Source: Candidatus Latescibacterota bacterium | Lineage (GTDB): Bacteria > Latescibacterota > UBA2968 > UBA8231 | Direction: 5' to 3' | DNA length: 64,000 nucleotides | Assembly: GCA_965243025.1 (NCBI GenBank) | Contig: CBDETY010000003.1 | Location: forward strand, 5,760,001-5,824,000 | Shown here: piece after piece, positions 45,184 through 48,500 of the stretch | How the letters are laid out: each line of letters starts with the position of its first letter | Position numbering within the stretch: position 1 is the first letter of the stretch | Notes under the pieces: model-generated | What the model was told of the DNA's origin: nothing | The model's input: only the letters and a program-made list of their open reading frames with translations | The model's database searches: none | Position numbers and translations under genes: made by a program

Positions 45184-45368
45184 GCTGCAGAGCATACCTG
45201 CCCATCCGCGAAGGAAAGGCCCGGAACATTCTGATTGACCACAGAATAATCGCCTGACAACGCAACCATACCATCCGCGAAGGAAGGGCGCCGGAACATT
45301 CTGATCGACCACAGAATCAGCCGCCTGACAACGCAGCCATACCATCCGCGAAGGTAAGGCGCCGGAAC

Positions 45369-45446
45369 ATGCTGATTGACCACAGAATTAATCGCGTGAC
45401 AACGCAGCCATACCATCCGCGAAGGAAAGGTGCCGGAACATGCTGA
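45369..45446 (+). CDS. Repeat-encoded 25-aa mini-ORF MLIDHRINRVTTQPYHPRRKGAGTC
   Basis: SD TAAGG 9 nt before ATG; TGA overlaps next ATG (ATGCTGA). Confidence 0.45.
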   Translation: MLIDHRINRVTTQPYHPRRKGAGTC

Positions 45447-45517
45447 TTGACCACAGAATTGATCGCGTGACAACGCAACCATACCATCCGCGAAGGAAAG
45501 GTGCCGGAACATGCTGA
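45440..45517 (+). CDS. Repeat-encoded 25-aa mini-ORF MLIDHRIDRVTTQPYHPRRKGAGTC
   Basis: SD AAGGAAAGG; TGA overlaps next ATG. Confidence 0.45.
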   Translation: MLIDHRIDRVTTQPYHPRRKGAGTC

Positions 45518-45588
45518 TTGACCACAGAATTAATCGCGTGACAACGCAACCATACCATCCGCGAAGGAAAGGCGCCGGAACATGCTAA
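45511..45588 (+). CDS. Repeat-encoded 25-aa mini-ORF MLIDHRINRVTTQPYHPRRKGAGTC
   Basis: SD AAGGAAAGG; TAA overlaps the adhesin ATG (ATGCTAA). Confidence 0.45.
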   Translation: MLIDHRINRVTTQPYHPRRKGAGTC

Positions 45589-48500
45589 TTGACCACAGAA
45601 CCAATCGCGTGACAACGCATCCCGTCCGTGGCGGATGCGCGGCCATAGTCTCCCTGGCCGCCCTGCTCTGTACCTCTTCCTCCTGGGCTCAAATCGGCTT
45701 GAGTCCGTCATTCGGGGACGGGACCGTTCAAAACCAGGTTTATATCGCAGACGCGGCGATCGAGCCGTTGGTGATGCCGGAAGCTTCGGGAGGGGACGGC
45801 GAGCTGGGATACCACGTGCTTCCAGAGCTTCCGGAGGGGTTGGTGTTCGAGAATGTCTCGAGAACCCTGTCGGGGACACCTGTGACCCCCCAGGCCGAGA
45901 CACTCTACGAATTGTTCGCTACCGACGCCGACGGCGATGCGGCCACCGTCTTCTTTTCCATCGAGGTACTCGAAGATCTGATGCCGGGCTTCGCTGAAGA
46001 TGTCGAGGATCGGATCTGGGCGGAAAACCAGGAGATCGAGCCGTTGGTGCTGCCAACGGCGGAGGGCGGCAACGGCGAGCTTTCGTATTCACTGGAGGGA
46101 GAGCTGCCCGAGGGGCTGGAATACGATGCGGCAACCCGGACGGTATCGGGAACCCCTGCAGTTTCCCCGCCCCCGACCGAGTTCACTTGGACAGCCTCCG
46201 ACGTGGACGGAGACTCGGATGAAGTGCGCTTCTACATCTTCGGGTCGGTTGCGGAGGACCTGGTGCCGGACTTCGCCGAAAGGGTCCCGGATCAGGTCTA
46301 CGTCGATGGTTGGCCTATTGAGCCTCTTTCGTTGCCAGATGCCACGGGAGGCACCGACGAGCTGGAATACTCGCTGGAGGGAGAGCTGCCCGAGGGGCTG
46401 GAATACGATGCGGTCACACGGACGATTTCGGGCACCCCTGTCGGGGCCCGGGCCCCCGGCGAGTACACATGGACAGCCACCGACGCCAACGGCGATGCGG
46501 CGGACCTGATCTTTTCCCTGGTGGTGGAAGAGGACGTCAACCCCGAGTTCACCGGAGAAGTGCAGAATCAGACGTGGATCCAGAACTCGGAGATTGCGGT
46601 GCTGAGATTTCCCGGTGCGGAAGGGGGCAACGCGCCGTATGTCTATTCGGTGTCACCTGAGCTTCCGGCGGGGCTGAGCTTCTGGGCAGGCGACCAGACG
46701 ATTTCCGGCACGCCGACGGAGGTCCGGGAACGGACCGTCTATGTGTACCGGGCCGTCGATGCCGACGGGGACCCGGTGGAACTGACTTTCTCACTGGAGG
46801 TGATCGAGGACCTGATGCCCAGCTTCGCCGAAGGTGTGGGGGGGCAGATCTGGACGGAAGATTCCGAAGTCGAGCCGCTGGTTCTGCCGGTGGGTTCGGG
46901 CGGAAACGGCGATTTGACCTACGAGCTCTCTCCGGAACTGGCACAGGGCCTGGTTTTCGATCCGGAGACGCGAACGATCTCGGGAACGCCCGTGGTACCC
47001 AAGGAACGGACCCGCCACGTGTACCGGGTGCTTGACGTCGACGGCGACGCCGCGGTTCTGACCTTCTCGGTGGAGGTTCTGAAGGATCTGATGCCGAGCT
47101 TTCCCGAGGCGGTGCAGAACCAGACCTGGATCCAGGACTCGGAAATCGCGGCCCTGGATTTGCCGGGTGCGGAAGGTGGCAACGGCGCGATCTCCTATTC
47201 GATTACTCCGGAACTTCCCGCGGGGCTGACATTCCGGCTGGGCGACCAGACGATAATGGGAACGCCGACGGAGGTCCAGGAACGGACCCTGTACGTGTAC
47301 CGGGCGGTTGACGCCGACGGAGATCCTGTGGAGACGACCTTCTCGCTGGCGGTGTTGGAAGACCTGATGCCGAGCTTCTCCGAGAGCGTGGAGGCTCAGA
47401 CCTGGACGGAGGATTCCCCCCTTGTCGAGCCGCTCCAGCTGCCGGCAGCGGAAGGGGGCAACGGTGCCTTGTTCTATTCGCTGTCTCCGGAGCTTCCGGA
47501 GGAGATGTCATTCGATGCGAGGACCCGGTTGATTTCAGGCAGGCCGACAGATCCACTTGATGAAACCGAGTACACGTTGACGGCAACCGACGGCGACGGC
47601 GACCCGGTCGATCTGGTCTTCTCGGTGACGGTGCTGGAGGACCTGATGCCGAGTTTCCCGGCAGTGGTTGGGAACCAGCTCTGGACGCAGGATTCGGAGA
47701 TCGAGCCGATCCAGGTTCCGGAGGCCGAGGGCGGCAACCGCGAGCTGGCCTCCATGAGGTATACGCTTACCCCTGAGTTGCCGGCGGGAGTGACGTTCGA
47801 CGCGGAATCGCTGACGATATCGGGCACCCCGGAGAATCCGCAGGATCTGACGCGCTACGTGATCCGGGCGAGAGACGCCGACGGGGACGTGGCGGGATTC
47901 GCGTTTACCGTGAGGGTTCTCGAGGATCTGATGCCGAGCTTCCCCGAAACCGTGGAGGATCAGATCTGGACGCAGGATTCGCCGATCGGGACGCTGGCGC
48001 TTCCGGTGGGCGAGGGGGGCAACGGCGTCGACCAGGTCGAGGGTCTGCTGAGCTATACGCTGTCACCGGACCTTCCGGACGGTCTGATGTTCGAGGGCAC
48101 CCGTCAGCGGATCCGGGGCACGCCGGCGGTGCCGATGGATGAGACGACGTTCACGTACACGGCCACGGACAACGACGGCGACTCGGTGGAGCTGACGTTC
48201 TCGCTGACGGTGCTCGAGGACCTGATGCCGAGCTTCCCGGCAGAGGTCAGGAATCAGCTCTGGACGCAGGATTCGGAGATCGAGCCGATCCAGCTTCCGG
48301 CGGCCGAGGGCGGCAACCGCGAGTTGGCCTCCATGAGGTATACGCTGACCCCTGAACTGCCGGCGGGGGTGACGCTTGACGAGGGGTCGCTGACGATTTC
48401 GGGCACCCCGGAGAACCCGCAGGATCTGACCCGCTACGTGTTCCGTGCGAGGGATGCGGACGGGGACGTGGTGGGGCTGGCGTTCAGCGTGAAGGTGCTG

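Follow-up and report, generated by a model that had tools for sequence, protein, structure and literature searches.

A tandem array upstream of a surface-protein gene in a Candidatus Latescibacterota bacterium, read as a minisatellite of start-region relics

Classic contingency loci carry repeat units of 1-8 bp that shift a reading frame or the spacing of a promoter, and the extended signal sequences of autotransporters span roughly 50-60 residues. Long autotransporter signal sequences share a common domain organisation (PMC2805444). Overlapping stop and start codons that couple the translation of neighbouring genes have been described as a family, in which 13 of 14 tested pairs were strictly coupled (PMC6728339). 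In E. coli, a short upstream open reading frame (ORF) that is at least 8-10 codons long, includes the target ribosome-binding site (RBS) and ends beside the AUG can raise translation up to 20-fold; in the nfORF boosters of this kind the RBS is strong and sits 4 nt before the AUG (PMC13255528). Here we analyse a locus that shares features with each of these systems. It lies in a 64,000-nt stretch of DNA (the window) from assembly GCA_965243025.1 of a Candidatus Latescibacterota bacterium (contig CBDETY010000003.1, positions 5,760,001 to 5,824,000 of the forward strand) and consists of six tandem units with a period of 71 bp that lead into a large ORF for a putative surface adhesin.

With moderate confidence, we read this array as an old, hypervariable and tolerated minisatellite made of relics of a start region, standing before a gene that now starts at an internal Met. 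Possibly the array is also mildly helpful. The pattern exists and its form is unusual; comparison with relatives accounts for its origin, and its design-like features are inherited.

The anatomy of the array can be seen directly. Tandem Repeats Finder (TRF) called the repeat at 45202-45619 with a period of 71, 5.9 copies, 92% matches and a score of 696. The units are referred to as U1 to U6, U6 holding the start of the gene (Table 1). A first, sequence-only reading of this DNA had described six 71-bp units, each a copy of the Shine-Dalgarno (SD) sequence, spacer and start codon of the adhesin gene. Six units are indeed present, but not every one is such a copy: the exact motif AAGGAAAGG and the ATG are each found in four of the six, and U1 is shortened both overall (69 nt) and in its spacer (8 nt). 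Mini-ORFs of 25 codons for the peptide MLIDHRI[N/D]RVTTQPYHPRRKGAGTC begin at the ATGs at 45369, 45440 and 45511, as that reading had it. The mini-ORF stops (TGA or TAA) sit 1 nt past the next ATG, giving ATGCTGA or ATGCTAA at 45440, 45511 and 45582, and each upstream mini-ORF contains the SD for the next start. The last one terminates at 45588, within the main ORF, so the coordinates proposed for a hand-off to the ATG at 45582 are right. Gain or loss of units leaves the present gene in frame, also as proposed.

Four sites vary among the three mini-ORFs (N/D, CAG/CAA, GGT/GGC and TGA/TAA), in agreement with the first description, and three of the four changes are silent. This excess does not hold up as a signal (P about 0.06 by our own estimate), the sites being non-independent and lying partly outside a constraint on the peptide only. 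U4 and U5 differ at a single position. Across the array, the edge units are the most diverged and the inner units the most alike.

Within the 6.8-Mb genome the array and its unit match nowhere else, and the leader (44930-45201) likewise matches only itself. There is thus no regulon and no second adhesin that carries the array, and the idea that the unit might precede other adhesins of this genome was not borne out. Genome-wide, 362 tandem repeats have a period of at least 20; in 61 of them the period is not a multiple of 3, and the array has the top score among these 61. The ORF context of the other such repeats was considered as a guide and set aside as uninformative in a GC-rich genome.

We then considered whether the array exists in independent DNA. 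Words of the stretch occur in 20 public runs from 11 studies. Four DNA-type runs from four studies (X1, X5, X6 and X9) were compared by their contigs, and pieces of the array were present in all four; the only RNA run among the 20, X20, contained a fraction of 0.06 of the words sampled. Contigs of X1, X5 and X6, from three studies, match the array piecewise with 0 differences, including the U1-U2-U3 and U5-U6 junctions. Tandem repeats are liable to misassembly, and here positions 45391-45468 have no contig cover in X1, X5 and X6 and no contig piece bridges the array from end to end, since short-read contigs break at repeated 31-mers. An assembly artefact is nevertheless practically out of the question. 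The units differ from one another, so each can be placed, the junction contigs are identical across the three studies, and homologous arrays occur in three further assemblies, described below. The 31-mer depths of X1 and X5 also fit six units (27/8.7 = 3.1 against 3.0 expected, and 18/8.7 = 2.1 against 2.0); X1 is possibly the sample from which the genome was assembled. The array is genuine DNA, as first described.

The ancestry of the unit was apparent from relatives. Compared with 41 genomes, the window DNA matched only its own genome (G000) and two congeners, G001 and G002. In both congeners the leader and gene align with the window and exactly one unit is present, TRF finding no comparable array at either locus. 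Their adhesin frame is open for 59 (G001) and 80 (G002) codons upstream of the internal Met used by the window. Full-length orthologues with an upstream Met and a conserved extension numbered four of six (P0006, P0007 from G001, P0008 from G002, and P0010). The extension comprises 41 residues, ..F.E.ARKA.S.I..P....E....SATERRR[KN]M, before Met42, and its upstream ATG is preceded by an SD. Bases of the AAGGAAAGG type encode ..(T/K)ERRR.. within the extension in G001, G002, P0006, P0007, P0008 and P0010. U6 is the unit nearest to the single copies of G001 and G002, with 11 and 17 differences, against 18-24 for U1-U5. These alignments indicate that the 71-bp unit derives from the coding sequence of the ancestor, where it corresponds to codons -9 to +13 around Met42.

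Two further proposals of the sequence-only reading do not survive this comparison. The unit had been taken for a dedicated initiation module, but in relatives the same bases are coding sequence of the 41-residue extension. A relay had been read into the overlap of stop and start, but this overlap already exists in the single copy of G001, which reads ATGCTAG where U6 reads ATGCTAA. A dual constraint on the internal SD in relatives was also considered and rejected: identity was 93% over the last 30 nt against 79% over the rest, with third-position differences at 8/41 overall, which was not significant.

Searches for the extension elsewhere added little. A tblastn search with the relatives' extension against the window's own genome returned only the locus itself. 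A family-wide search with alignment A1 matched 29 of 76 genomes; among the matches listed, the N-terminus from residue 1 was covered only by G000, G001 and G002, the others being He_PIG repeats of other proteins. G001 also holds a second, truncated copy of the locus (contig C7, about 10400-10720, minus strand; L011). In this copy the leader, extension and internal ATG are cleanly deleted, with ..TGATGATTTCACT joined directly to ..AGAACAAATCGCGTGACACC, and homology stops after about 210 nt of coding sequence. By eye, a PAP2-like gene similar to the neighbour of the window gene adjoins it. Candidate explanations for the copy are a pseudogene, a strain variant and contamination of the bin.

The leader of the window retains what looks like the former start. 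The first 11 residues of a short ORF at 45107 align with M(M)NTIVAAFLE of G001/P0007 and P0010, indicating that this remnant is the decapitated N-terminus of the ancestral protein. Relative to G001, loss of 1 nt breaks the frame that begins at 45107. The extension is still readable in another frame, ..KAGSLIRHPIFFAAEHTCPSAKER.., and there matches the extension of the orthologues. The nearest in-frame stop before 45582 is at 45531.

Homologous arrays were sought with a 129-aa reverse-strand ORF spanning the array as protein query. This found three ENA proteins, P0123, P0124 and P0125, which read backwards through units and leader down to a 37-nt box. Unit states were deduced by mapping residues onto the three reverse frames of U5, a procedure that gave exactly the known states when applied to the window's own reverse ORFs. 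The unit sums of P0124, P0123 and P0125 (354, 285 and 285 nt) are three times the residues covered, and unit counts are lower bounds. Across the three arrays, 8 of 13 visible units lack an ATG, and unit lengths of 69, 70, 71 and 72 nt occur. Adjacent ATG-bearing units were deduced only in P0124 (units 1 and 2). Start-less units appear as duplicates in P0124 (units 3 and 4) and P0125 (units 2 and 3), suggesting that duplication is independent of initiation function. A distal unit of the U1 type, with the same two 1-nt deletions as U1 of the window, was deduced in P0124 and P0125.

The window has, and all three homologues are deduced to have, a 1-nt deletion, relative to G001, in the same ~12-nt stretch of the extension-coding region. 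Frame break and array are common to the window and P0123-P0125 and are thus old, shared by a clade of at least four lineages. This clade is a group of sponge-associated bacteria. P0124 would lie on one contig with P0004, an orthologue of the main protein, as both contigs are equally long. Arrays also vary directly between lineages. The leaders of P0124 and P0125 are identical at 80 of 81 residues, but the visible units number 5 and 4 and are of different types, a contrast that reads as the fast, function-blind turnover of a variable-number tandem repeat (VNTR). Differences in unit number between related assemblies had been anticipated and are now seen, extending to unit type. The sequence-only reading had also named homologous arrays of irregular unit length as the mark of a neutral VNTR, and this is largely what we found, with units of 69-72 nt, most visible units start-less and start-less units duplicated. 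A conserved stop/start arrangement was not seen among the relatives, given the single unit of G001 and G002 and the ATG missing from 8 of 13 array units.

A second reverse-ORF query, with P0124, found no additional arrays. A scan of genome contigs with the degenerate pattern CCATCCGCGAMGGWARGG gave at least 116 stretches with one match each in unrelated taxa, as expected by chance. In metagenome contigs, a 24-letter unit-core pattern gave 0 matches and alignment A1 gave 597 pattern matches, of which 0 were confirmed. All three reverse frames of the unit are stop-free, and reverse ORFs, put at 129-200 aa in one count and 108-171 aa in another, cover the array (45123-45903, minus strand). A real reverse-strand gene was considered and rejected: indels switch the frame between units in every lineage, and there was no family match. 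Frame-switched and without a family, these ORFs are thus spurious gene calls. Since gene callers deposit them, as with P0123-P0125 from other assemblies, they can serve in practice to track down homologous arrays through protein databases.

We propose the following origin. The ancestral gene would have started at the SD-preceded ATG that lies at 45107 in the window, with a 41-residue extension before Met42 and a classical signal peptide. A tandem duplication within the 5' coding region of this surface-protein gene, out of frame, would have given rise to a minisatellite with units of 69-72 bp. In the window's clade, the 1-nt deletion and the 3n+2 duplication would together have severed the extension and moved the start to the ancestral Met42 in the last unit (45582), where we infer it to be today. 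The purine-rich ..KERRR.. codons would now act as the SD of the gene. The five upstream units would be relics of one segment at differing stages of decay, and those that keep SD and ATG would, if translated, yield a 25-residue nonsense peptide. Ribosomes terminating at the mini-ORF stops can probably reinitiate at, or open, the next site, and the relics would be tolerated as a result.

The geometry of a relay would follow automatically from this origin, because the period is 3n+2 and a TAA or TGA in the +1 frame pre-existed in codons 2-3; in its absence another stop lies 8 codons further on. An in-frame period would have put residues ahead of the signal peptide. On this view the layout is explained by survivorship, not design, and the chain would be a by-product rather than a conserved device.

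Table 1. Features of the locus in the window, and unit series deduced for three homologous arrays (proximal to distal; unit counts are lower bounds)
Feature	Position	Strand	Description
37-nt box	44961-44997 (L014 1460-1505)	+	palindrome AATCGCGATT at 44972-44981; identical in window, G001 and G002
Remnant ORF	45107-45163	+	18 codons, MTNTIVTAFLEMGGRQDP then stop; preceded by AAGGAG
Decayed ex-coding stretch of extension	45164-45203	+	hairpin; T8 run at 45176-45183
U1	45204-45272	+	69 nt, two 1-nt deletions; distal relic; ATT at start position (45228); spacer 8 nt
U2	45273-45343	+	71 nt; distal relic; ATT at start position (45298); SD-type motif AAGGAAGGG
U3	45344-45414	+	71 nt; ATG kept; SD-like motif altered, AAGGTAAGG
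U4	45415-45485	+	71 nt; SD-like motif and ATG kept
U5	45486-45556	+	71 nt; SD-like motif and ATG kept
U6	45557-45627	+	71 nt; putative working initiation region: GAAGGAAAGG, 9-nt spacer, ATG 45582
Mini-ORFs	45369-45446, 45440-45517, 45511-45588	+	25 codons each, from U3, U4 and U5
Main ORF	45582-52268	+	2228 aa; signal peptide, 16 He_PIG repeats, Big_2-like domain, predicted C-terminal outer-membrane beta-barrel (about 50700-52265)
P0123 array	7,555-base contig		72 nt ATG, 71 lost, 72 lost, 70 ATG; sum 285 nt
P0124 array	201,343-base contig		71 nt ATG, 70 ATG, 72 lost, 72 lost, 69 lost; sum 354 nt
P0125 array	296,726-base contig		71 nt ATG, 72 lost, 72 lost, 70 lost; sum 285 nt

Decay of the relics was also visible directly in strain X9, which is about 3-4% diverged from the window and carries the array as well. 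In X9, the ATG of U3 has become ATT and 6 further changes are present (7 positions), whilst U1 has 2 changes and U2 has 3, a total of 12 in the 211 nt of U1-U3. Two additional 1-nt deletions fall in the ex-coding stretch, at 45176 and 45201. The contig over U2-U3 of X9 has about twice the depth of its flanks, which hints at extra units there. In the coding sequence that follows the first 23 codons, X9 has 10 differences in 251 nt, affecting 5 synonymous and 4 non-synonymous codons.

Several observations weigh against a minisatellite that is merely tolerated. Over about 206 covered nt, comprising U4-U6 and the first 23 codons, X9 shows 0 differences from the window. In this one comparison of short contigs, the invariance could reflect constraint on the two proximal mini-ORF modules along with the initiation region in use, a recombination tract or mixed-strain contigs. 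At least 4-5 upstream units persist in each of the four lineages sampled from the clade, although direct repeats delete easily, and the most proximal visible unit keeps its ATG in every array. A C>T change in U4 and U5 strengthens the predicted pairing with the anti-SD: with the genome's own 16S rRNA tail, ..CACCTCCTTTCT, the predicted duplex reaches -10.8 kcal/mol for U4 and U5 against -8.1 for U6 (-6.8 for U3 and -8.3 for the remnant ORF). In a crude sample, a duplex of -8 was reached by 27% of first-ATG upstream regions of long ORFs and by 20% of random 20-mers, an SD enrichment so modest that the SD assignment itself must stay provisional. Neutrality of the array, too, is putative.

The invariance of U4-U6, the retention of the array in all four lineages and the constant proximal ATG would suit a selected translation device. 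The proximal 2-3 copies would then be kept as a coupling or unwinding relay, with unit number tuning adhesin output: after loss of the strong start, the weaker internal initiation region would have been amplified, and ribosomes would terminate on top of the next start and there reinitiate or unwind the site. We regard such a device as possible but doubtful; any effect of the array on expression is something we infer. Its layout matches that of the engineered boosters (PMC13255528), and the 13 of 14 strictly coupled overlapping pairs (PMC6728339) lend it precedent. The fast shift of array make-up between near-identical genomes points the same way. However, the chain is discontinuous from the strong upstream start, since the remnant ORF ends 40 nt before U1 and neither U1 nor U2 has an ATG. 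Distal units gather ATG losses, SD changes and indels in every lineage, start-less units are duplicated as well, and the stop/start overlap is older than the array. The 31-mer depths of X1 and X5 fit one six-unit allele, and no unit-number variation was seen within the window's own strain, at the low power that contigs allow.

Predicted folding cuts both ways. The AUG-enclosing hairpin is predicted to be stronger in the window (-8.4 to -9.3 kcal/mol in U3-U5 and -5.5 in U6) than in G001 (-2.6) and G002 (-1.0), so unwinding would have work to do, but the same hairpins on the upstream AUGs would damp initiation there. In the full-leader ensemble, AUG accessibility does not set U6 apart from the relics, a result of low weight. 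Moreover, birth and death of units beside a selected U6 yields the same gradient of intact proximal and decayed distal units, with no selection on the relics. We think it unlikely that selection amplified the initiation region after the frameshift, with 2-3 intact proximal copies acting as a natural, multi-stage leader-cistron booster and rapid copy changes grading the adhesin frame-safely. Ribosome loading would then be the level at which such a contingency locus acts. We also considered a long, upstream-initiated isoform under copy-number phase variation and rejected it, as every unit has stops in the two non-ancestral frames. A tolerated minisatellite of start-region relics remains our preferred reading.

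We also weighed readings in which the units act other than through their start codons. Each unit has a purine-rich GGA motif and a predicted hairpin, and the 561-nt leader as a whole folds somewhat better than shuffles (z = -2.1; 2 of 100 shuffles as good). The units could in principle be RNA or DNA binding sites (ANGGA motifs, hairpins) for a CsrA-like repressor, an antiterminator or a transcription factor, which the array would titrate or bind cooperatively. The evidence makes this very improbable. CsrA (PF02599) had 0 matches in the window's own genome, which is 96% complete, whereas the control search was positive in 3 of 14 reference genomes; this tells against the CsrA-like sites of the sequence-only reading. 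By inspection, the GGA of TCC-GCGAA-GGA lies in the stem, not the loop. Folding z-scores of single units are weak (-1.1 to -2.3, and +0.9 for U6), and an Rfam search of 44000-46500 gave only a sub-threshold chance match to a miRNA model, at 19.7 bits against a gathering score of 70. The unit also occurs nowhere else in the genome, leaving no regulon to serve. Overall, the first reading is partly supported: its anatomy, hand-off, frame-safe unit change and unit-number differences stand.

The 25-residue basic peptide might itself be the product, encoded by three gene copies that are intact, differ at one residue (N/D) and vary mostly at silent sites (3 of 4). U4 and U5 are recent duplicates with 1 difference, however, so their likeness reflects age rather than constraint. 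The first 12-13 residues of the peptide are the adhesin N-terminus, and the remainder is an out-of-frame reading of the former extension. It has no Pfam match, X9 lacks the ATG of the first copy, and the homologous arrays keep only 1-2 visible ATG-bearing units, with indels. A peptide product is extremely improbable.

Upstream of the array and its leader lies a 37-nt box that is identical in the window, G001 and G002, with flanks about 75% identical among the three. In runs X5 and X9, 35 nt of the box recur with other flanks (loose ends 44959/44993), and in G001 a 24-bp segment that overlaps the 3' end of the box and extends beyond it is tandemly duplicated. The box is probably an operator or promoter element common to orthologous genes of co-occurring relatives. 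No terminator was called by a scan of the + strand of 44600-45800. A leader-peptide attenuator was considered and rejected: no terminator was called, the hairpin and T run are coding sequence in relatives, and the T run is absent from G002.

The downstream gene encodes what is predicted to be a surface protein with an outer-membrane barrel anchor, for which "autotransporter-like" denotes a resemblance only. By eye, its first ~37 residues form a Sec-type signal peptide (..SSSWA/Q). He_PIG was matched in 16 stretches (E 2.8e-126), and in the passenger (47538-50150) a recently duplicated in-frame repeat of 576-579 bp occurs in five copies, each spanning two He_PIG domains. Identity to the reference copy is 85-86% for copies 2-4 and drops to 63% for copy 5. 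The gene is thus prone to duplication within its coding part as well. The last 522 aa had no sequence match in Pfam, NCBIfam or PDB, and the precomputed family PF28597 is listed for the C-terminal anchor (50700-52265) and its orthologues. An AlphaFold model of these 522 aa, from a 27-row alignment, has a pLDDT of 69.6 and shows a long helix followed by a beta-barrel, with about 18 DSSP strands after the helices. Foldseek gave target-normalised TM-scores of 0.51-0.56 to the autotransporter beta domains 3qq2, 3aeh, 4mee, 1uyn and 2qom, and TonB-dependent receptors and LptD reached similar scores. Precomputed PF03797 was found on 6 of 120 homologues listed. The barrel may exceed the classical 12-stranded autotransporter domain in size.

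The gene appears to remain functional, as both the window and P0004 keep its 2228-codon ORF intact. P0004 also has 2228 residues, is 94% identical over the C-terminal 509 residues and is called from the internal Met like the window protein. A partial protein with 98% identity carries the NCBI label "Candidatus Aminicenantes bacterium", as a metagenome-assembled genome. The upstream neighbour on the same strand (43849-44757) is an ORF resembling phosphatases of the PAP2 superfamily (PF01569, E 1.1e-11).

Other short repeats were noted on contig C3 of the window's own genome. At 25799-25849 lies a perfect 25-bp x2 tandem duplication whose unit reads AGGAG, 7 nt, ATG, a further duplicated module of initiation-like form, before a tiny frame only. 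Short arrays with a 23-24-bp unit occur at 458105-458215, 3348098-3348184, 4338301-4338368 and 3345853-3345915. Their unit has a palindromic core, TCACC.GATC.GGTGA, followed by an A run, is found at several genome sites and looks like a dispersed REP-like family.

Among known systems, the array is close to VNTR and contingency loci in being a repeat arranged head to tail at an adhesin-like gene's 5' end, with the last unit holding the start codon and with unit number and type differing between close relatives. It differs in that the 71-bp unit sits ahead of the start that is presumably in use, copies the initiation region and has no means of shifting the gene out of frame. A full-text literature search, at the level of listings and abstracts, returned no natural array of repeated initiation modules.

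Extended autotransporter signals have a parallel in the orthologues, which likewise have an extension before a classical signal peptide and a predicted C-terminal outer-membrane barrel. Extension and signal peptide together come to about 78 residues in the orthologues, longer than the roughly 50-60 of that family, and the window has lost the extension. The ..FLEIARKA.. segment presumably resembles the ESPR motif. A Pfam search of P0002 and P0003 at E <= 10 gave no ESPR match, only He_PIG and a chance match to Methyltransf_10 (E 0.14). The locus illustrates how one out-of-frame tandem duplication can make a large secreted protein start at an internal Met. In this case the 41-residue pre-signal extension was lost, and initiation-region relics were left behind as a self-propagating array. 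For annotation it is a warning that a design-like pattern may be a by-product of ancestry.

As in termination-reinitiation coupling (ATGA, TGATG), each mini-ORF stop of the array falls inside the footprint of the start that follows, on the same strand. Known cases join two real genes and are conserved, whereas here nonsense relics overlap by 7 nt (ATGCTGA) rather than 4 or 1, three in series, and the arrangement arises from the 3n+2 period and the pre-existing out-of-frame stop. Another parallel in layout is with engineered leader cistrons, namely bicistronic designs and nfORFs (PMC13255528). Like the mini-ORFs, these are nonsense ORFs, at least 8-10 codons long, that include the target RBS and end beside the target AUG. 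The engineered boosters are synthetic, single-stage and tested in E. coli, whilst the chain described here is natural and three-stage, with a 9-nt spacer and a moderate SD. Given the 3n+2 period and the out-of-frame stop in codons 2-3, its relics fall into register as overlapping leader cistrons, a layout that is built deliberately in synthetic biology. The locus therefore offers a natural test bed for whether serial leader cistrons aid translation and whether, in an uncultured symbiont, minisatellites can grade how strongly a surface protein is expressed.

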